A stretch of 64,000 bases of DNA from Haliotis cracherodii (taxonomy: Eukaryota). Location: positions 22,382,001 to 22,446,000 of the forward strand of contig NW_027266268.1 in assembly GCF_022045235.1 (NCBI RefSeq). The letters run 5' to 3'. Below the pieces are notes generated by a model. That model did no database searches. It was not told the DNA's origin and saw only the letters and a program-made list of their open reading frames with translations. The position numbers were made by a program, and so were the translations under genes. Positions 2,566 through 46,291 of the stretch are shown in pieces (positions within the stretch are counted from its first letter, which is position 1; every line of letters starts with the position of its first letter).

Positions 2566-2981
2566 AGATGATTTGGGAGTTGTGTACATGCTGTGCCGCA
2601 AGCCACGTGCTAGTCTGTCTTACAGACCCTGATACAAATAAATATCAAATATAGCCCATGCAAGTCTATAATGTTTGGCAAGTCTAGATCACTGCAGTAT
2701 CTGAAAATGAAGAGAGTCACTGGGCTCCTTTTTATTATATTTTTATTAAGATAACTGAACAACTGTTTTTATGTACGATATGTTCATTTCAGAGACTAGA
2801 TTTTAGTCTAGCCACGTGCATGCCACGTGTAATATACGATAATGATAGGCTATACATGTGTACATAACGAAGCACCTGCTCGTGTATGTCAATTTACTTA
2901 TCCGTATTAACCATAAACCCATGATTCACCATCAATGTGCAAAAGGACAAGCGAGTGCATGTTGTATTATGTCGCAGCCGC

Positions 2982-3232
2982 TGTTTGTTTGTTTGTTGTT
3001 TAACGCCGACCTCAACAATATTCCAGCTTCATGACGGTGGTCTGTAAATAATCGAGTCTGGACCAGACAATCCAGTGATTCACATCATGAGCATCGATCC
3101 ACGCAATTGGGATACGATGACATGCATCAACCAAGTCAGCGAGCCTGACCACCCGATCCCGTTAATCGCCTCATATGACAAGCATAGTCGCCTTTAACGA
3201 CAAGTAAAAGTCGCCTCTTTACGGCAAGCATG
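2982..3232 (-). mobile_element. SINE-like family A copy
   Basis: Homologous to 2312-2565; head hairpin unit triplicated. Confidence 0.85.
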
Positions 3233-23874: not shown

Positions 23875-26235
23875 CTTGTGTGTGTGAACACGCCTCTTGT
23901 TGTGGATGAATATTGTCTCTATTGTGGGTGAACTATTCTCTTCTTGTGGATCAACATCCATCCACTCGTGTTATGAACATCCAATCTCTTCTGTGAACAT
24001 CCTCCCTCTTGTGTGTGAACATCCATCCACTTGTGTGTGAACATCCACCCCCTTGTGTGTAAACATCTATCCACGTGTGTGTGAACATCCATCCACTTGT
24101 GTGTGTACATCCATCCACTTGTGTGTGAACATCCTCTCTTTTGTATGTGAACATCAATCCACTTGTGTGTGAACATCCATCAACTTGTGTGTGAACATCC
24201 ATCCACTTGTGTGTGTACATCCATCAACTTGTGTGTGTACATCCATCCACTTGTGTGTGAACATCCATCCACTTGTGTATGAACATCTATCCACTTGTGT
24301 GTGAACATCCATCCACTTGTGTGTGTACATCTATCCACTTGTGTGTGAACATCCATCCACTTGTGTGTGAACATCCATCCACTTGTATGTGAACATCTAT
24401 CCACTTGCGTGTGAACATTCATCCACTTGTGTGTGAACATCCAGCCACTTGTGTGTGAACATCTGTTCACTTGTATGTGAACATCCATCCACTTGTGTGT
24501 GAACATCCATCCACTTGTGTGTGAACATACATCCACTTGTGTGTGAACATCTGTCCACTTGTGTGTGTACATCCATCCACTTGTGTGTGAACATCCATCC
24601 ACCTGTGTGTGTACATCTATCCACTTGTGTGTGTACATCTATCCACTTGTGTGTGAACATCCATCCACTTGTGTGTGAACATCCATCAACTTGTGTGTGA
24701 ACATTCATCCACTTGTGTGTGAACATCCATCCACTTGTGTGTGAACATCTGTCCACTTGTGTGTGTACATCCTCTCTTTTGTATGTGAACATCCATCCAC
24801 TTGTGTGTGTACATCTATCCACTTGTGTGTGAACATCCATCCACTTGTGTGTGAACATCCATCAACTTGTGTGTGAACATTCATCCACTTGTGTGTGAAC
24901 ATCCATCCACTTGTGTGTGAACATCCATCCACTTGTGTGTGTACATCCTCTCTTTTGTATGTGAACATCCATCCACTTGTGTGTGTACATCTATCCACTT
25001 GTGTGTGAACATCCATCCACTTGTGTGTGAACATTCATCCACTTGTGTGTGAACATTCATCCACTTGTGTGTGAACATCCATCCACTTGTGTGTGAACAT
25101 CCATCCACTTGTGTGTGAACATCTGTCCACTTGTGTGTGTACATCCATCCACTTGTGTGTGAACATCCATCCACCTGTGTGTGTACATCTATCCACTTGT
25201 GTGTGTACATCTATCCACTTGTGTGTGAACATCCATCCACTTGTGTGTGAACATCCATCAACTTGTGTGTGAACATTCATCCACTTGTGTGTGAACATCC
25301 ATCCACTTGTGTGTGAACATCTGTCCACTTGTGTGTGTACATCCTCTCTTTTGTATGTGAACATCCATCCACTTGTGTGTGTACATCTATCCACTTGTGT
25401 GTGAACATCCATCCACTTGTGTGTGAACATCCATCAACTTGTGTGTGAACATTCATCCACTTGTGTGTGAACATCCATCCACTTGTGTGTGAACATCCAT
25501 CCACTTGTGTGTGTACATCCTCTCTTTTGTATGTGAACATCCATCCACTTGTGTGTGTACATCTATCCACTTGTGTGTGAACATCCATCCACTTGTGTGT
25601 GAACATTCATCCACTTGTGTGTGAACATTCATCCACTTGTGTGTGAACATCCATCCACTTGTGTGTGAACATCCATCCACTTGTGTGTGTACATCCTCTC
25701 TTTTGTATGTGAACATCCATCCACTTGTGTGTGAACATCCATCCACTTGTGTGTGTACATCCTCTCTTTTGTATGTGAACATCCATCCACTTGTGTGTGT
25801 ACATCTATCCACTTGTGTGTGAACATCCATCCACTTGTGTGTGAACATTCATCCACTTGTGTGTGAACATTCATCCACTTGCGTGTGAACATCCATCCAC
25901 TTGTGTGTGAACATCCATCCACTTGTGTGTGTACATCTATCCACTTGTGTGTGTACATCTATCCACTTGTATGTGAACATCCATCCACTTGTGTGTGTAC
26001 ATCTATCCACTTGTGTGTGAACATCCATCCACCTGTGCGTGAACATCCATCCACTTGTGTGTGAACATCCATCCACTTGTCTGTGAACATCCATCCACTT
26101 GTTTGTGAACATCCATCCACTTGTCTGTGAACATCCATCCACTTGTGTGTGAACATCCATCCACTTGTCTGTGAGTGCTCATCCTTTTGTGGGTGAACAT
26201 TAATCCACTTCTGGTGAACACCCACCCTCTTGTCG
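23875..26235. repeat. 22-bp minisatellite with 572-bp higher-order repeat
   Basis: GTGTGAACATCCATCCACTTGT, about 100 copies. Confidence 0.97.
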
Positions 26236-27283
26236 GTGAAATGTATCGACGACGGTACTCTGCATATTGATATTGTATACGTAAATAATTGTTAGCTAAT
26301 AATTATAACTGGTAATGGATACCTAAGACTTGATGAAGTGATACTCAACATTTATTCGGTTATATGGACATGTACAACAGTTGTTATAGTGGATGTCAAA
26401 GGTGAGGGAGTGAGATGGTTGTCAATATTACAGCAATATCATGGCGGGGGTAACAGAAAAGGCTTTCATACCGGAATCGAACCGGAACGTTCGGTGTGAC
26501 GAGCCAACACTTTACTCATTTGGTGATCCCACCGACCCATAACATCCCCAACCCCTTTCTCCGCCAGACAGTGCTATATGGAGGTATTCACGGCACGCAG
26601 GTACGATCGTCTCACTGATTCTCCATACAGAAAGTGATTGGTATTATATACAGGCCTGGTCTTGACACACGGCACAATTTAGTTGTCTAGTCGCTGTGTC
26701 AGAATACAAGACGTCTCCATGCGCCACGACCGCCATGGAAGGAATTCCTCTATGCAAGACCATACAAGGGGAGGGGAACTATGCCTCGACCTTAGCGTAC
26801 ACCTATTGTTTTCGGGTGACTGAATCCTATATGTCATTTGTTGACATTTCTATATTGCGCTTGCCACATTTGTTCAACACTGAAGATTCACTATCACGTA
26901 ATGAGGGCAGTGAGAAGGCTCTTGCTTCAATCCCCTTTCATAACATCGAGCGTATCATGTTTAATAATTTTGTGTCTGATGTCTGAGCACAGTGCGATCG
27001 AGGACATAGTCACGGAGCGTTCCGGGACATGGGGGACTGTCCCTCTCTACTAGGTTACAGGTCCGTAACGGGGACCAGTCTGACACGGTGATGAAAAGGG
27101 CGGAGGAGTGATAGCTCGTGATGGCTCAGCGTAGAGAAGTGCTTCACACTGACGTCGGACTATACACGCCCATAAGGCCATGGGGGCTCCTTCAACTAAC
27201 TCTTAGTCTCTGATAATATATAATTTTGATAGAAACAAATAATTCCATTTAATATATACACTTGCTTCACAAATAGAGCTGGG

Positions 27284-27428: not shown

Positions 27429-27867
27429 AGGGCTATAGCATTACAGAAAGGGCTGGGCTGAAGGGAAGGTAATATGGTTGTGGGTCTGTAAGACAGATTA
27501 GGGGCCCCTGCTCACCGCGATGTTCAGTAAAGTAAAGGCCTACCCTGTTTATATTATACCCTTACAGCGTTGACAATTATTACCTTAGATGCTCAAATAT
27601 GAACAGCCACAGACTCTCTTCAACATTTCATGAAGATATAAATTTAAACTCGATCACATGGACTACTTCAATCACCAAACTGTTGCAGTTCTTATTTCCG
27701 AGCTGCGAATCACAAAACATCTGATTAGATAGATAGATAGATAGATAGATACTTCCTTCAGTTACAGCTGCAAAAACAGGAATTTTATTAATTAAAACCA
27801 TGAAGCTGAATATTAATTTTTTGAAAGAAAAACACCTTGCAAGAATGTAATTTTTGTGGCAGACAAG

Positions 27868-28650
27868 TTACGTATCATAACGTGACTTGGGGATGTCGTA
27901 TTACGTTTCATGACGTGACTTGGGGTGTCGTATTAGGTTTCATAACGTTACTTGGGGATGTCGTTTGTCGTATCATAACGTGACTTATGGGTGTCGTATT
28001 ACGTATCATCGCGTGACTTGGGGTGTCGTATTACGTTTCATAACATGACTTCGATGTCTCGCATTGCGTATCATAACGTGACTTCGTTGTGTCGTGGTAC
28101 ATACCACAACGCGACTTAGTGTATCATGTTACGTATCATAACGTGACTTGGTGTATCGTATTACATTTCATAACGTGACTTGGTGTATCGTGTTACGTAT
28201 CATAACGTGACTTCGATGTCTCGCGTTACGTATCATAACGTGACTTCGTTGTGTCGTGGTACGTACCACAACGTGACTTGGTGTATCGTGTTACGTATCA
28301 TAACGTGACTTCGATGTCTCGCGTTACGTATCACAACGTGACTTCGTTGTGTCGTGGTACGTACCACAACGTGACTTGGTGTATCGTGTTACGTATCATA
28401 ACGTGACTTGGTGTCTCGCGTTACGTATCATAACGTGACTTCGTTGTGTCGTGGTACGTACCACAACGTGACTTGGTGTATCGTGTTACGTATCATAACG
28501 TGACTTGGTGTCTCGCGTTACGTATCATAACGTGACTTCGTTGTGTCGTGGTACGTACCACAACGTGACTTGGTGTATCGTGTTACGTATCATAACGTGA
28601 CTTGGTGTCTCGCGTTACGTATCATAACGTGACTCTGGCATGTCGTATTA
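27868..28650. repeat. 32-33-bp CpG-rich minisatellite with a 97-bp trimeric higher-order unit
   Basis: CATAACGTGACTTGGTGTATCGTGTTACGTAT variants. Confidence 0.95.
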
Positions 28651-29144
28651 CACGGACACCATTATGTATTGGAACCCAAATCTACCGACGACGGTAGGCT
28701 TTTGGTTTTTAGCGATTACTCTCACCTGGTTCTATTTCCATATTTGTAAACAATGTGGAACCAGTTCCTGGATTTTCCTGGGGGTAAAACAATACCCATC
28801 TTTCTCCATTCTACACAATTTTCCCAAACCCCGTTGACTGACAACGATCCTGCCTGTGACCTAAAGGTGGATAACGAGCGGTATAAGTAGGGTTAATAGG
28901 AGGCCAATTTGTGGGGACTGGCCTACAAATGAGAGGTTAGTTATCAAGATATCAAACTACTAATTGTTGTAGGTAATTGCATTTAATTATCACAACAGTC
29001 AGTGCATGTAGAGTAACGTTTTATCATTAGCATCATCCAATAACTATTTAAGGTCACTCAATAATTCGTCGGGCGTGGTGAAACAGTTTTTGTCCTTTAT
29101 TCAAAGACTATTAGTTAGACAATGAGGAGGACGTACGTAGATGG

Positions 29145-37862: not shown

Positions 37863-37929
37863 TTGTTTAACGCCGTACTAATCAATTTCGTAGTAGTTCT
37901 ATTCGAAGTAGCAGTAGTAGTAGTATTTG

Positions 37930-38644
37930 TGTGAACTCTTAAATTATCTAATTAATGGAGATAGAGGATATCAAAGTTTCAACTCGATCCAGCACTTTAA
38001 TATTGTCTTTAATTTCAAACTTCACAAATTCCATATACCATAATTCCATATATTCAGTGAATATCCACACAATGATTGAATAACATATCACACACTCCAA
38101 GAATAAGTCGTAATATAATAAACAGTCGCAGCACAGTTGCAGGATAAATGCAGGATAGCTTGTACCGTGGCTCGGACAGTAGCTCGGACAGTAGCTCGGA
38201 CAGTAGCTCGGACAGTAGCTCGGACAGGTTGAAAAACCGTATGTCCTCTATTCCCTTAACACAATCTTCTTACTCTCTCTTAGAAACATGTCTTACTTCT
38301 TTCGTATCTTAAAACTCTCTGCTCTCTTTCTCACACTCATTCGTCCAGCTATATATCTGAAATTCTTGTGGGATGCTTATCGTTGTTGATCAGGTCACGA
38401 CCTCTAAGACTCCACACAAAAACAATTAACTTTAAAGTCTTAGCTGCAACATTATACTATTGCTGTCACCAACCCCTGGGAAAATAGCCTGAAACGGCCA
38501 CTGGCAGCAAGGGCTGGCTGTTTCTAATGTTTTATCTTATAATTATACTAAACACATGCATCCATGCACACATACAAACCCTAACAAAGTTCCAATTAAA
38601 AGGATTCTCAATGAACCACAAATACCTAAAATTCAGCTCTAACA
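37930..38644 (-). repeat. 3' LTR (715 bp)
   Basis: Direct repeat of 45321-46023 with 5 copies of the 12-bp unit CTCGGACAGTAG. Confidence 0.95.
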
Positions 38645-39007: not shown

Positions 39008-42000
39008 TTAAGTGTCACTCTCTAGAAGCAAACATAGCTTGCTAATAGGTCTGTCCAAAACCTTTGTCTGGGTTTTCACCTCAACCCGTCTTACAACACC
39101 CTTTCTGTCAGGCATAAGCTTCACAACCTTGCCCATCGACCAAGAGTTTCTAGGTGCAGTATTGTCCACTATGAGCACAATGTCACCAATCTTCAAATTT
39201 CTTCTAAGCTTCACCCACTTCTGTCGCTCCTGTAGTAATGGCAAGTACTCTCTTAACCATCTCTTCCAAAACAGATCTGCCATGTACTGCACTTGACGCC
39301 ACCTCCGTCTTGGATAATGACCATCCATACCAAACATACCTGGTGGCAAATTTGGTTTTCTTTTCAAGAGCAACAAGTGATTTGGAGTGAGGGCTTCCAA
39401 ATCATTTGGATCACTTGATGCTCTGGAGATAGGTCTATTATTGATAATAGCCTCTACCTCACACAACACAGTTCGCAAAGTTTCATCATCTAACGTTTGT
39501 TCTCTTACCAGAGATCTCAACACTTTTCTCACGGTTCTGATTTGTCTCTCCCATACGCCGCCATGGTGGGAACCAGCAGGAGGATTGAATGTCCATTCAA
39601 CATTTCTTTGTAACATCTCTTGATGAATCTGACATTTGTTCCAGTTTTCTAACTCTTCTCTGAGCTCACGCTCACTTCCAACGAAGTTGGTACCATTATC
39701 TGATTTGATGACTTTGACTTGACCTCTTCTAGCCATGAAACGGCGCAATGCATTAATACAAGAGTCAGTGTCTAAGCTATACGCCACTTCTATATGCACA
39801 GCACGCGTTGTGAGGCACGTGAACAAAACTCCATACCTTTTTTCATGCTTTCGTCCACGTTTTACATCAAATGGACCAAAGTAATCCACTCCAACAAAGG
39901 TAAAAGGAGGTTCATCAGGAGTCACACGTTGAGCTGGCAAGTCAGCCATCTTTTGATTACCTGCTACAACTTGATTGCGTCGGCAAGTTACACATCTGTG
40001 TATTTCTTGCCTCACTGCTGCATTGGCTTTGATAATCCAATATTTCTCAAACAATTTTGAAAGTACAAAGTTTCTGCCTGAATGCCCACATTCACGATGA
40101 ACATGGCGAATTATCAGTTCTGAGACATGCGATTTCTTTGGTAGAATCATTGGGTGTTTGGAGCTTTCGGGCATGTTAGCGCGACTTAGTCTTCCACCCA
40201 CCCTAAGCACACCATCTTCTACAAATGGATCAAGCTTGGAGATTGGACTACCTTTGTTCAAATCAAGCTCTTTGTTTGAATTAAGTCTTTCAAGTTCACT
40301 TGAAAAGTCTTGCTGTTGAACATAGCAAACAATGGCTTTCTCTGCATTTTCTAAGTCTTTCACAGTCAACACTACAGGCATGCTTTGCTGAGGTGCTAAG
40401 CCTGCCTTCTTCTTTTGACTGCGATCCAGGAGTACTTCCCGTATCCTGAGCACCCATGCGATAGCCTTCTTCAGTGCAAACCAGTCAGAATAGTGACTGA
40501 TAAGGCTGTCTATTTCCTTACATGGCTTGCTGTAGTCTATCAAGTTGACTCGGGCAACCTTCTTTAATTCAACGTCTTTCTTGGGAATATCTCTTAAAAT
40601 GTGTGTCTGTTGAGGCCACATTTCTTCATCTTCCCACAGGAACTTTGGTCCAGAGAGCCATCTGGTATCTTTCAGAAATGCATCTATTGACAGTCCTCGA
40701 GATGCTTCATCAGCAGGATTGTTCTGAGTGTCCACATACTTCCATTGAGATGGGCTTGAGCCTTCATGAATTACTGACAGCCTATTTGCCACAAAAGTAT
40801 GGAATCGCTTTGAATCATTGGCGATGTATCTTAAAACTGACATACTGTCTGACCAAAAGTAAGTTTGGTCAATTGGCATTTCCAGCTCTCGTTTGAGCAT
40901 ACTGTCTACCCGTATTGCTAGAGTAGCGGCTGATAGCTCCATTCTTGGTATCGTGATCTGCTTAAGTGGGGCAACTCTTGATTTGCTGATGAGAAATGCA
41001 CAATGAATTTGACCAGTGCTACTGACTTGTCTTAGGTAAGAAACAGTTCCGTAACCTGTTTCACTGGCATCCGAAAAATGATGTATTTGAGATACCATCT
41101 TCTGATTACTATCATTTGGTTGAATGCATCTTCTAATCGCCATTTCCTCAAGCCTGCGTAGTTCCGACAACCATTTGGTCCAGTCCTTCTGCAAGGGAAC
41201 GGGGATTACGTCATCCCATCCTATCTTAAGTCTGCAGAGGTCTTGTAGAATTCCCTTTGCTTTGAGAACATAAGGGCCTGCAAATCCTAATGGATCATAG
41301 ATGGAGCTGACAGTTGACAGTATTCCTCTTCTCGTTATTGGTTTGTCTTTGATTGCAATCCGGAATTTAAATGTATCTGATTCGACGCACCAGTGTACAC
41401 CTAATGCCCTCTCGATTGGTAAAGCATCATCCATGTCCAAGTCTTTAACTTCTTTGGCTCGCTCCTCTCCTGGGATTGATTCTATTGCAGCTCTGCTGTT
41501 ACTTATCCATTTTGTCAAGCGAAATCCACCCTTCTTACAGATTTCTCTCAGCTTATGTGACATTTCAATGGCCATTTTCTCAGATTGGACTGAAGTAAGA
41601 CAGTCATCCACGTAGAAACTCTTTTCAACAGCATGAACAACTTCCTTGCCAAACAAGTCCATGTTGTCCTTCGCTGTTTCTTTCAAGGCAAAGTTGGCAC
41701 AACTTGGTGATGAGACCGCGCCAAATAAGTGCACTTTCATCTGATATTCTTGTAATTCTTCATCCAAGTTTCCATTGGGCCACCATAGGAACCGCAGAAC
41801 ATCATAGTCGTCTGGTTCGACTCTAACCTGGTAAAACATAGCTTCGATGTCTGCCATCAGAGCTATTGGTTCTTGGCGAAATCTCAGGAGCACTCCCAGT
41901 AGGGTATTGGTTAGATCCGGCCCCTGTAGAAGGTGGTCATTTAGAGATTTCCCTCTGAAAGTTGCTGCACAGTCAAATACAACTCGTATCTTCTCTGGCT

Positions 42001-44890
42001 TTTTTGGATGGTACACACCATGATGTGGTATATACCACACCTTTCCATCCTTACGGTCTTTCTTATTCTCTGGTACTTTCTGGGCATAGTCTTTGTCCAG
42101 GAGATCTTTCATGAATACCTTGTAGTCTTCATAAAAGTTTTCATTCTTCTTAAATTTCTTCTTTAGTGAAATGGCTCTTTGCTCAGCTTGTACTTTATTG
42201 TTGGGCAAATCTAATTGGGCATCTTTGAATGGGAGTGACATCTGGTAATGTCCTCCTGTCAGTGTCTTTGAGGAGTTCATGATGTCTAAGAATTGCTTGT
42301 CGTCTCTTGACATCTCAGGTTGATCATTACTGATGCGCTCGTTGAACTCCCTGTTGAAGTATCCTATTAACTGAAGATCCAATTTCTCGTCTCCAAGAAC
42401 ATCAGTCCTGTTTACTGAGATCTCACTGGAAGATTCTGATTCCTGTACTAGCCCATTTACAATCCATCCAAGAATGGTTCTGACTGCATAGGGCCCGTTA
42501 CCATCGCTGTTGATTATCTCATACGGTTCCATTGCTCTTGGGACATTGTTGCCAATAAGGAGTCCTATCTCCGCATCTATAGGTGGTAGTGTGACGTCCT
42601 GTAGATGGGGCCATTGATGGATGAACTTTTCTTTGGGGACTGTGCTTGTGGAAATTGGCATTTCATCCTGTGTAAAGACAGTAGGCAGTTTGACCCAATT
42701 GTTTCCGTCAATGTCACCAACTTCTAGATTTGATAGGATGGAGGTATTAACAGTTTTCCTTTGAGTCATGGTGCTGACAACTATGTTTGTCATCTTTCCA
42801 GTGACTTGGAGCTCCTCTGCCAACTTGCTGGTACAAAAGGTCGCTGAACTGCCGTTGTCAAGGAAGGCATATGTTTTGACATATCTGTCACCAGAGTTGA
42901 CTTTAATCCTAACAGGGACCACAGGCATGTAGCTCAAGTCTTTGTGGTCCCCGCTCTCACTCGTAGCCAAACTGTTGTTTGTGACAACCCTTGGCTTCGT
43001 TTGGTCCATTTCTTTCTTTTCTCTGTCCTTACCGTTGTCATGAAAACAGGTTGCATGTCTCAGTTTACATATATGACATGTCAATCTGCTGGGGCACTCG
43101 CGACTCATATGTCCAAATTGTAAGCAGCCAAAACACAAGCCCTTTGGTCTTAAGAAGTCAGTCTTCTCATCCAACGTCTTACACTGCATTCCCTTGCACA
43201 TTTCCATGGTGTGGTCCTCATTGCAGAACCAGCATGGCTTGATGAATGCTCTAGACGTGTTGGCTGTTCTTTCGCTAGTTGCAGATGGCTTACCAGATGT
43301 CATCAATTTTGGTTTAACTGGGTAGGCTGCCCTGGTGGCAGTTTCTTGACCTAATTCAGACTTTGATGTGTCGGTAGCAAAGCTCTTATATCTCTTTGGC
43401 GCTTCTTTCATCTTTGGTCTTGCTTGAACTTGGATGTCGTCGATGATATTGCCAAACAATGGGCTTGACAAGATCTGTGCTTGTTTATCTACGAAACCAA
43501 CAAGGTCCGCAAAGGTGACATTTCTCCTTTCCAAGATATTAAACGAAACTGTTCTCCATCTTTCTCTTAACTTATATGGCAACTTTTGGATCAACTCTCT
43601 GATGTTCTTTGGATGTTCTAATTCTCTTAGATAGTCGATATCGGTCATGGTATTTCCACAGCTGGTCAGGAATACAGCAAAGCTGTTGAGTGCTTCACTG
43701 TCCTCTGACTTAATAGCCGGCCATTTCAATGCTTTGTTCATGTAAGCTGTTGCTATCTTGTACTTGTTCCCAAATTTCTTATCCAAAAGTGACCTGGCTT
43801 GTTCATAGCCACTTTCAGGGTTCATGAATAAGCAGCTTCTTACCAAGTCATTCGGTTCACCGTTGGTGTACTGATCCAAGTAATAGAGCCTATCTTTTGG
43901 ATTGATGGTTTTATCTTCTATGCCATGCTCGAATGCTTGTATGAAGGGCTTAAACTGTAGTGGGTCACCACTGAACACAGGAATCTTCCTAGTGGGTAGC
44001 GTGGCCAATTTCTGGTGTTCTACCACTAGCTGGATTATCTCATTCTGTTGCTTACATACTTCATCAAATTTTGAATTGTGGACTCCAACCTGTAGGTTTG
44101 TACTCTGAATAGGGGTAAATTCTTCAGCTTCTGGGTTCAAATCTTTATTTCGGGTCTTTACTTGCTTGAAGGGCCTTAGTGAACTTTCTGGTTTTCGAGA
44201 ACTGTGTGATTCTCGGTCATACTGGTCAAAAATTTCATACTGGGCATCGGCAATTTCTACTTCTGTCTCAAGTTCTAATCTTTCTCGTCTTTGTTTTAAT
44301 CTGTTTTCTTCTTCTTCTAATTGGTGTCTTCGTTCTAAACATTTTTGTCTGGCAATAAGTTCGGCCCTTTTCGCTAGGATCTCCATTTTGGCAGAGGAGG
44401 CAGAGGAGATTACTGAACCCTTAGGTAATCCAACTTGAGAAACGCTATCTTCTGGTCTAATGTCATCTCCCGTACTGTAATGTTTAATGAAGGAGGTAAC
44501 ATTTCTTTCAAACTGCGAAAAGGTGCATAGCTTTGATTGGAACCAAGTTGCTTCATCGTCTTTAGCTGATTGGCTATGAAGTTTTTCATGATAAGCTTTA
44601 GCCGATTCTTGAAACTTGTCACATAATTCCTTCCAATCTTCAAATTCATTTTTGACGGCATCTAAATCTGCATCAGAGCTCATCAAGTATTCAATGTCCT
44701 TTATCTTTGAAGAAACCTGCTTGTATAAGAATTTCATTTTATCCTGTGCCATGTTCAAAACATAATTTTGGCCCTTTTCAGTCTGTTTTCTTAATCTTGA
44801 TTCAGTTATTAATGATTTAGCATTTCTTGCAGGTTCATGAATCAGTTCTTTGTCACTTGTTACAGCATCACTCAATGTTCTACTTGCCAT
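39008..44890 (-). CDS. BEL/Pao Gag-Pol polyprotein (~1960 aa): Gag, three zinc knuckles, aspartic protease, RT, RNase H, integrase
   Basis: Gag IPVFSGDPLQFKPFIQAFE; knuckles CWFCNEDHTMEMC, CFGCLQFGHMSREC, CHICKLRHATCFH; protease LDNGSSATF; RT KIRVVFDCAA, ADIEAMFYQV, FYVDD; RNase H HFSDASETGYG, KSRVAP, IPRMEL; integrase HRECGH...CVTC, GVDYFGP, SDNGTNF, GGVWERQI. Domain order PR-RT-RH-IN. First ATG at 44890 (the track start at 44920 is TTG). Confidence 0.97.
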   Translation of the reverse strand: MASRTLSDAVTSDKELIHEPARNAKSLITESRLRKQTEKGQNYVLNMAQDKMKFLYKQVSSKIKDIEYLMSSDADLDAVKNEFEDWKELCDKFQESAKAYHEKLHSQSAKDDEATWFQSKLCTFSQFERNVTSFIKHYSTGDDIRPEDSVSQVGLPKGSVISSASSAKMEILAKRAELIARQKCLERRHQLEEEENRLKQRRERLELETEVEIADAQYEIFDQYDRESHSSRKPESSLRPFKQVKTRNKDLNPEAEEFTPIQSTNLQVGVHNSKFDEVCKQQNEIIQLVVEHQKLATLPTRKIPVFSGDPLQFKPFIQAFEHGIEDKTINPKDRLYYLDQYTNGEPNDLVRSCLFMNPESGYEQARSLLDKKFGNKYKIATAYMNKALKWPAIKSEDSEALNSFAVFLTSCGNTMTDIDYLRELEHPKNIRELIQKLPYKLRERWRTVSFNILERRNVTFADLVGFVDKQAQILSSPLFGNIIDDIQVQARPKMKEAPKRYKSFATDTSKSELGQETATRAAYPVKPKLMTSGKPSATSERTANTSRAFIKPCWFCNEDHTMEMCKGMQCKTLDEKTDFLRPKGLCFGCLQFGHMSRECPSRLTCHICKLRHATCFHDNGKDREKKEMDQTKPRVVTNNSLATSESGDHKDLSYMPVVPVRIKVNSGDRYVKTYAFLDNGSSATFCTSKLAEELQVTGKMTNIVVSTMTQRKTVNTSILSNLEVGDIDGNNWVKLPTVFTQDEMPISTSTVPKEKFIHQWPHLQDVTLPPIDAEIGLLIGNNVPRAMEPYEIINSDGNGPYAVRTILGWIVNGLVQESESSSEISVNRTDVLGDEKLDLQLIGYFNREFNERISNDQPEMSRDDKQFLDIMNSSKTLTGGHYQMSLPFKDAQLDLPNNKVQAEQRAISLKKKFKKNENFYEDYKVFMKDLLDKDYAQKVPENKKDRKDGKVWYIPHHGVYHPKKPEKIRVVFDCAATFRGKSLNDHLLQGPDLTNTLLGVLLRFRQEPIALMADIEAMFYQVRVEPDDYDVLRFLWWPNGNLDEELQEYQMKVHLFGAVSSPSCANFALKETAKDNMDLFGKEVVHAVEKSFYVDDCLTSVQSEKMAIEMSHKLREICKKGGFRLTKWISNSRAAIESIPGEERAKEVKDLDMDDALPIERALGVHWCVESDTFKFRIAIKDKPITRRGILSTVSSIYDPLGFAGPYVLKAKGILQDLCRLKIGWDDVIPVPLQKDWTKWLSELRRLEEMAIRRCIQPNDSNQKMVSQIHHFSDASETGYGTVSYLRQVSSTGQIHCAFLISKSRVAPLKQITIPRMELSAATLAIRVDSMLKRELEMPIDQTYFWSDSMSVLRYIANDSKRFHTFVANRLSVIHEGSSPSQWKYVDTQNNPADEASRGLSIDAFLKDTRWLSGPKFLWEDEEMWPQQTHILRDIPKKDVELKKVARVNLIDYSKPCKEIDSLISHYSDWFALKKAIAWVLRIREVLLDRSQKKKAGLAPQQSMPVVLTVKDLENAEKAIVCYVQQQDFSSELERLNSNKELDLNKGSPISKLDPFVEDGVLRVGGRLSRANMPESSKHPMILPKKSHVSELIIRHVHRECGHSGRNFVLSKLFEKYWIIKANAAVRQEIHRCVTCRRNQVVAGNQKMADLPAQRVTPDEPPFTFVGVDYFGPFDVKRGRKHEKRYGVLFTCLTTRAVHIEVAYSLDTDSCINALRRFMARRGQVKVIKSDNGTNFVGSERELREELENWNKCQIHQEMLQRNVEWTFNPPAGSHHGGVWERQIRTVRKVLRSLVREQTLDDETLRTVLCEVEAIINNRPISRASSDPNDLEALTPNHLLLLKRKPNLPPGMFGMDGHYPRRRWRQVQYMADLFWKRWLREYLPLLQERQKWVKLRRNLKIGDIVLIVDNTAPRNSWSMGKVVKLMPDRKGVVRRVEVKTQTKVLDRPISKLCLLLESDT

Positions 44891-45320
44891 GATTTCAAAT
44901 CGGTTCAACACCAGTTCCAATAATCTTGAAATATTTGATGTAACTTACAGTTCTTGAGTTCCGTAATCCTATGTGATAAGTCCAATTCAGTGTATACACG
45001 ATTCCAGTGACATATAATCCCTCATGTATTTGCTTGTTTCTGAATAAACACACTCTTCAATACTCGAACAGGTAGTCTTATTACCCGTAAGTTCTTTTAT
45101 CACGCATCGATAAAACCATAAAAGTCACATTTACTTCACAAGCTCAACTTCTTGAGAAAATAAAATACCTTACTTCGACTTCGAGTCCTTAATCCAATCT
45201 GTGTTAATCCGTTTTGAACTTTGCAGGATCCTGTTGCCAATTCACGAATGGAGACACAATCTTCTTTATGTCCAAGTCTTAGGTTCACATCCGGATTTTC
45301 ACGGGTTTTTCAACTTTTAA

Positions 45321-46023
45321 TGTGAACTCTTAAATTATCTAATTAATGGAGATAGAGGATATCAAAGTTTCAACTCGATCCAGCACTTTAATATTGTCTT
45401 TAATTTCAAACTTCACAAATTCCATATACCATAATTCCATATATTCAGTGAATATCCACACAATGATTGAATAACATATCACACACTCCAAGAATAAGTC
45501 GTAATATAATAAACAGTCGCAGCACAGTTGCAGGATAAATGCAGGATAGCTTGTACCGTGGCTCGGACAGTAGCTCGGACAGTAGCTCGGACAGTAGCTC
45601 GGACAGGTTGAAAAACCGTATGTCCTCTATTCCCTTAACACAATCTTCTTACTCTCTCTTAGAAACATGTCTTACTTCTTTCGTATCTTAAAACTCTCTG
45701 CTCTCTTTCTCACACTCATTCGTCCAGCTATATATCTGAAATTCTTGTGGGATGCTTATCGTTGTTGATCAGGTCACGACCTCTAAGACTCCACACAAAA
45801 ACAATTAACTTTAAAGTCTTAGCTGCAACATTATACTATTGCTGTCACCAACCCCTGGGAAAATAGCCTGAAACGGCCACTGGCAGCAAGGGCTGGCTGT
45901 TTCTAATGTTTTATCTTATAATTATACTAAACACATGCATCCATGCACACATACAAACCCTAACAAAGTTCCAATTAAAAGGATTCTCAATGAACCACAA
46001 ATACCTAAAATTCAGCTCTAACA
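45321..46023 (-). repeat. 5' LTR (703 bp)
   Basis: Direct repeat of 37930-38644 with 4 copies of the internal 12-bp unit. TATATA-like element near 45729-45735 and ATTAAA signals on - near the U5 end. Confidence 0.95.
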
Positions 46024-46024
46024 A

Positions 46025-46291
46025 TTTGTTTGTTTTGTTTTGTTTTGTTGTTTAACGCCGCAATATTCCAGCTATTTGTGACGACGGTCTGTAAATTAAT
46101 CGAGTCTGGACAATCCAGTGATTGAAATCATGAGCATCGATCCACGCAATTGGGATCGATGACATGTATCAACCAAGTCAGCGAGCCTGACCACCCGATC
46201 CCTTTAATCGCCTTTTACGACAAGCATAGTCGCCTTTTACGTCAAGTATGGGTTGCTGAAGACCTATTCTACCCCAGAATCTTCACGGGTC
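46025..46291 (-). mobile_element. SINE-like family A copy abutting the BEL insertion site
   Basis: Full-length homology; its tail overlaps the right-hand TSD. Confidence 0.85.

Follow-up and report, generated by a model that had tools for sequence, protein, structure and literature searches.

Probable Tf1-like self-priming by a BEL/Pao retrotransposon of Haliotis cracherodii, with a primer predicted to be built by splicing in most relatives

How does an intact LTR retrotransposon prime minus-strand DNA synthesis when no tRNA-complementary site follows its 5′ LTR? The question is raised by a 64,000-nt stretch of the Haliotis cracherodii genome (contig NW_027266268.1, positions 22,382,001 to 22,446,000, forward strand), which we call the window and number from its first letter. 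An intact element lies at 46023-37930 on the minus strand. Its LTRs (5′, 703 nt; 3′, 715 nt) differ solely by one additional 12-bp unit in the 3′ copy, a target site duplication (TSD), CAAAT, is present at both flanks, and the coding region is one open frame of 1978 codons with matches to Pao peptidase A17, DUF1759, DUF5641, reverse transcriptase (RT) and integrase. PF05380, DUF1759 and DUF5641 together with RT and an integrase that follows it in a single gag-pol frame are the domain content of BEL/Pao (Belpaoviridae), and the TG...CA LTRs, 5-bp TSD and polypurine tract are the corresponding structure; judged by these features, the element is a young BEL/Pao retrotransposon. The acidic motifs that we take to be those of RT and RNase H are intact in its translation. 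No TGG follows the LTR, so the element is not of the tRNA-primed type, and the initial annotation of this DNA, which described an intact BEL/Pao element without a tRNA primer-binding site (PBS), was right on this point. A search of the host genome (1.18 Gb) with the element returned 41 matches, 16 of which comprise LTR plus leader at 84-100% identity. The features of the element, in window coordinates, are:

46024..46028, minus strand: TSD CAAAT, upstream copy
45321..46023, minus strand: 5′ LTR, TG...CA, 703 nt, intronless at the primer segment
45729..45734, minus strand: TATATA flagged by the initial annotation, not supported as a working promoter
45618..45625, minus strand: initiator-like motif GGACATAC, likely start at ~45619 suggested by cross-family motif counts
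45607..45617, minus strand: candidate self-primer segment GGTTTTTCAAC; one-bulge pairing reaches 45620
45561..45606, minus strand: 12-bp tandem array, beginning at the predicted cut; 3.8 units (4.8 in the 3′ LTR)
45387..45404, minus strand: two ATTAAA, candidate poly(A) signals
45315..45320, minus strand: spacer TTAAAA, 6 nt, LTR to PBS
45304..45314, minus strand: candidate primer-binding site GTTGAAAAACC, without tRNA match
45269..45278, minus strand: leader segment predicted by folding to pair with the tandem array (rival helix)
39008..44890, minus strand: single gag-pol ORF from the first Met, 1960 aa
38645..38660, minus strand: polypurine tract
37930..38644, minus strand: 3′ LTR, 715 nt
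37925..37929, minus strand: TSD CAAAT, downstream copy

Long tandem arrays also occur elsewhere in the window, at 10215-12369 (67 bp), 23953-26240 (22 bp) and 27867-28651 (32 bp).

Priming by an element's own RNA is known from Tf1, in which bases 1-11 of the transcript anneal to the PBS and are severed from base 12 by RNase H (PMC7175516), and Tf1-type self-priming has been implicated for Tj1 and elements from fungi to vertebrates (PMC4600332). As far as the accessible text of these papers goes, the window element resembles Tf1/Tf2 of Schizosaccharomyces pombe, Tj1 and the Tf1/sushi group in having no tRNA site and a PBS complementary to about 11 bases of its own LTR transcript. Behind its 5′ LTR comes TTAAAA and then GTTGAAAAACC (45314-45304), which is complementary over 11 nt to GGTTTTTCAAC (45617-45607), a segment that directly adjoins the 12-bp array (45606-45561). 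The initial annotation had noted this perfect complementarity, its extension across one bulge and the array border at the segment's 3′ end, and all three stand: duplex folding of the PBS against the LTR segment gives 14 pairs with one bulge at -14.4 kcal/mol, and the array starts at 45606, one base beyond the segment. The PBS 11-mer is identical in 15 of 16 copies of the element. On the window LTR, 11 nt were reached by 2 of 100 PBS shuffles, none of 30 leader controls and none of 36 PBSs from other elements. Because two shuffles also reach 11 nt, the match taken alone is modest and suggestive, not decisive.

We therefore rest the case on relatives. Of 442 candidates for a PF05380 query and 452 for an RT query, 150 matches each were scored; 119 ten-kilobase element stretches were examined, along with 62 metagenome loci, most of which have no definable LTR pair and nine of which were scored. 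LTR ends were set by eye for L189 and L176 and from sister contigs for L171 and L162. TSDs define the ends of 71 elements in the host genome, and a TGG site is present in 29 of these. This site (TGGTAGCAGAGCG) matches the 3′ end of tRNA-Met(CAT) and is preceded by a spacer of 1-5 A/T bases, so the 6-nt gap between LTR and duplex in the window element, raised as a caveat by the initial annotation, is no objection to priming. The tRNA-Met-primed families of the same genome share the domain order, the 5-bp TSD and the short A/T spacer with the window element; unlike it, they carry TGGTAGCAGAGCG and show no match to their own LTR. In the non-TGG families, the sequence behind the LTR is different in each. 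In some families (L072, L077, L128, L130), the LTR ends in TA instead of CA, with intact TSDs. The tRNA-Met 3′-end pattern has 261 genome matches, including a tandem array with 400-bp spacing from G000:C78:27742775; two matches outside this array were confirmed as tRNA-Met. Three consecutive BEL copies at 6.3-6.5 kb spacing, probably tandem elements with common LTRs, lie at G000:C23:76024108-76037233 and C67:22968319-22981778.

For each family, we scored the longest Watson-Crick helix starting at most 7 nt from the LTR end, either contiguous or across a strict GT..AG pair, in 25 non-TGG families (19 from the host genome and 6 from metagenome contigs), 9 TGG families and 600 cross-family pairs. 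A helix of at least 10 pairs with the own LTR was found in 22 of 25 non-TGG families and of at least 11 pairs in 19, compared with 28 and 10 of the 600 cross-family pairs, respectively; none of the 9 TGG families reached 10 pairs on its own LTR (range 4-6). The matches are 10-15 nt long, each family's own and different, and the PBS-side end of the helix lies 0-6 nt from the LTR. Thus the PBS can pair with about 11 nt of the element's own LTR, and the two covary between families, as in Tf1-type elements, and the suggestion that the window element may self-prime gains sequence support from the very comparison that the initial annotation had proposed. Three families fall below 10 pairs (L113, 9; L162, 9; L141, 6), and two metagenome loci with uncertain LTR ends (L203, L175), among the nine scored and excluded from the 25, gave no match. 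Only 16 of 25 rows have the own LTR as the sole best match, in part owing to cross-matches between sister families, and the family counts overstate independence because the families are related. Across 38 family LTR copies, the helix is conserved no better than the LTR average (0.043 vs 0.047). The predicted primer 3′ end is AC or AT in 22 of 22 families, with C as the next base in 17. In a quick unrooted tree of 32 rows (L112, L126, L149 and L176 excluded, <250 aa), a branch with support 100 separates the TGG families from the rest.

The window by itself could not reveal that an intron interrupts the primer segment of most relatives. Most non-TGG families complete their match only when a canonical LTR intron is removed; with splicing disallowed, at least 10 pairs are reached in 12 of 25 families and at least 11 in 5. 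The donors (GTAAGT or GTATG) and the pyrimidine-rich YAG acceptors are mostly textbook sites, separated by 76-444 nt. Contigs from four runs of related organisms, which are only guessed to be RNA, were aligned to L111 and show a joint at 2824-3048 (223 nt, CT..AC ends) in runs X1 and X4, from two studies; this joint coincides precisely with the minus-strand intron predicted for L057. For a second intron-bearing LTR on L111, no joint was present among the joints listed. The L111:4710-5097 repeat has very high contig depth in all four runs. The other line of evidence is a loss: compared with its sister L072, L130 lacks exactly LTR bases 283-455, a 173-nt intron, from both LTRs, and its 14-nt match is therefore contiguous. 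The LTR intron is real, with one spliced in RNA-type contigs and one lost exactly. Upstream of the donor, the junction contigs extend for 30 nt, and a contig from X4 takes in the entire LTR on that side. Some spliced RNA therefore starts well ahead of the helix, in the 3′ LTR or at an upstream start; a spliced 3′ LTR would explain both these contigs and the intron losses.

A contiguous, intronless match is found in the window element, L130, L042, L048, L101, L149, L184 and L191, and the six contiguous rows of the quick unrooted tree require four changes. An intron in the window LTR was considered and rejected: its contiguous match is unbeaten by any junction, and no GT-AG joint is present there among the joints listed for RNA-type runs X1, X2 and X4. 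Two further elements bear on LTR architecture. The tRNA-Met-primed L103 has a canonical-looking 146-nt LTR intron in the same CAC-AGAT|GTAAGT context as L072, and the two LTRs of L065 are twins of 321 nt that have lost ~360 nt, including the acceptor and the 3′ half of the match; its TSD is intact.

Self-priming of this kind places the primer at the RNA 5′ end, and the position of the transcription start is thus of interest. Of 22 families, 14 have a YA two bases upstream of the helix (3.2 expected) and 11 have GG[TCA]C in the 12 nt that precede it (1.1 expected), both motifs having been picked post hoc; a TATA-like box 22-36 nt before the helix is found in 1 of 22. Since GGACATAC directly precedes the window helix, motif and folding indicate a likely start at ~45619, 2 nt before the match. 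For an RNA whose 5′ end lies 2-5 nt ahead of the helix and whose 3′ end lies 22-40 nt past the LTR, the predicted helix probability is 0.90-0.96; with a TATA-based start it is at most 0.03. The initial annotation's placement of the segment ~85-100 nt into the transcript, reckoned from TATATA, is thus not supported, and we rejected a start near 45700, at which the helix vanishes in folding and for which relatives have no TATA box at such a distance. The prediction depends on leader length: the probability is 0.00-0.04 with a 70-nt leader, because the tandem array pairs with 45278-45269, and 0.46-0.89 with a 150-nt leader. Predicted splicing raises the helix from at most 0.11 to at least 0.7 in 8 of 15 intron-bearing rows and from ~0.7 to at least 0.96 in three more; helix probability remains below 0.2 in 6 of 23 folded rows. 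A U5-IR-like stem beside the duplex is a feature of Tf1-type self-priming, and across the 23 folds the LTR end has no common partner. The tandem array was also considered as a marker of the cut and rejected (2 of 22 families vs 0.5 expected, not significant).

We consider it probable, from the family comparison and by analogy with Tf1, that the window element self-primes in the Tf1 manner and that in the group the primer is usually built by splicing. The first 11-14 bases of the window RNA would pair with the site behind the LTR and prime minus-strand DNA synthesis; this 5′ end would be spliced in most families and ready-made in the window element. Element RNase H would cut behind the match, at ~45607/45606, freeing the primer as in Tf1, and RT would extend it from 6 nt outside the LTR, with integrase trimming the spacer. 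For the window element, the start, the cut and the extension are all modelled on Tf1. With the predicted cut placed 3′ of the splice junction, the junction would never be copied into strong-stop DNA; the intron would therefore be inherited from the unspliced 3′ LTR, and 5′ splicing would not be inherited. Occasional splicing of the 3′ LTR would yield intronless elements such as the window element. In one family copy (L028 / L255, G000:C1:2204894 region), TTAAAAGT stands behind the 3′ LTR, and the terminal 13 bases of the LTR then appear a second time as a slipped repeat, inside an intact TSD, GTATG. By its sequence, this copy shows a cDNA end that ran through the spacer and slipped back, which fits self-priming and is not specific to it. 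On balance, and with limited confidence, we also lean towards a broader reading, in which the host spliceosome builds the RT primer across several deep BEL/Pao lineages, only RNA that has lost the intron of its 5′ LTR and kept that of its 3′ LTR both primes and transmits the intron, splicing acts as a transposition switch, and intronless elements are repeated escapes via a copied spliced 3′ LTR.

The primer could instead be element RNA supplied in trans or from elsewhere, such as a short spliced LTR or solo-LTR transcript, the spliced 3′ LTR of another, co-packaged RNA or the product of a small-RNA-guided cut. We regard this as unlikely. It would accommodate junction contigs that reach at least 30 nt upstream of the donor (one X4 contig covering the LTR upstream of the donor), the first exons of only ~5-12 nt that the cis model implies, and the copying of L065 with LTRs that lack half the match. 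However, an initiator-like motif lies directly before the helix, folding forms the helix in cis, and L065 is the sole such copy among those examined, with an 8-nt overlap at its deletion of the sort that a one-off template jump would leave.

We give still less credence to a purely structural helix, serving packaging, dimerisation, translation or splicing control while priming takes another route, for example a protein primer or an RNase H fragment. The own-LTR helix occupies the exact position of the tRNA site in sister families and never co-occurs with it (0 of 9 vs 22 of 25), and on the PBS side it ends 0-6 nt from the LTR, where a primer would have to end. These points outweigh, in our view, the rival helix predicted in the window element and the intron of tRNA-primed L103, whose similar context means that the intron need not exist for priming.

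Priming by a host RNA (a tRNA fragment, trailer or other small RNA), with the LTR match a copy or coincidence, is very improbable. The host search covered the exact 13-nt complement of the window PBS across the whole genome; of its 27 matches, 15 are element copies, and the remaining 12 loci carry no tRNA or Rfam RNA at the matching site, so that for this exact pattern the PBS is not tRNA-complementary and the host tRNA that the initial annotation had named as a possible counter-explanation did not appear. Moreover, each family's different site is matched by its own splice junction, and this covariation, at the level of sequence, leaves a host primer disfavoured. A chance A/T-rich match, which the two shuffles would allow for the window element alone, has next to no probability given at least 11 nt in 19 of 25 families vs 10 of 600 cross pairs, and is refuted for the group and, only by analogy, for the window element. 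A Pol III transcript whose 3′ oligo-U would pair with the AAAA spacer was discarded in view of the spacer length, which ranges from 0 to 6 nt across families.

The preferred reading, Tf1-like self-priming, sets the window element beside known systems without placing it among them. It appears to work like Tf1 and is not a member of the Tf1/sushi group, a Ty3/gypsy chromovirus lineage, since its protein carries BEL/Pao families; the BEL group also has spacers of 0-6 nt. In most BEL relatives, a spliceosomal intron splits the matching segment, a feature unmentioned for Tf1 in the text available, and in the BEL element the start at the helix and the RNase H cut are predicted only. For plant Tcn1 (gypsy) and TAR/Houba/Osr-1 (copia), self-priming was predicted from PBS-LTR complementarity alone (PMC6317226), and the mechanism had therefore, on that paper's accessible text, already been proposed in two superfamilies; BEL/Pao would be a third, and no splice-built primer is mentioned there. 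The accessible text on BEL/Pao names the clades Sailor (Sinbad, Sparrow, Surcouf), Suzu, Tas, Dan and Flow (PMC6238403); BEL LTRs were not modelled in PMC3601003, and a term search of the available portions of PMC6238403, PMC554778 and PMC8556966 returned no PBS or priming terms. No report of BEL/Pao self-priming or of a splice-built primer was found in the literature searched, a body that excludes subscription journals, Repbase reports and supplements, whose tables may list BEL primer sites.

The phenomenon is real and general, and the literature searched does not describe it; a known mode of priming has probably gained a splicing step. The analysis gives exact, testable coordinates for start, cut and primer, and an annotation rule for BEL elements that PBS-based tools score as defective. 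If true, the reading would account for replication without a tRNA site in a large share of the BEL/Pao elements of animals, would extend self-priming to a third LTR superfamily, and would add a step absent from the literature searched, the assembly of the primer by host splicing.
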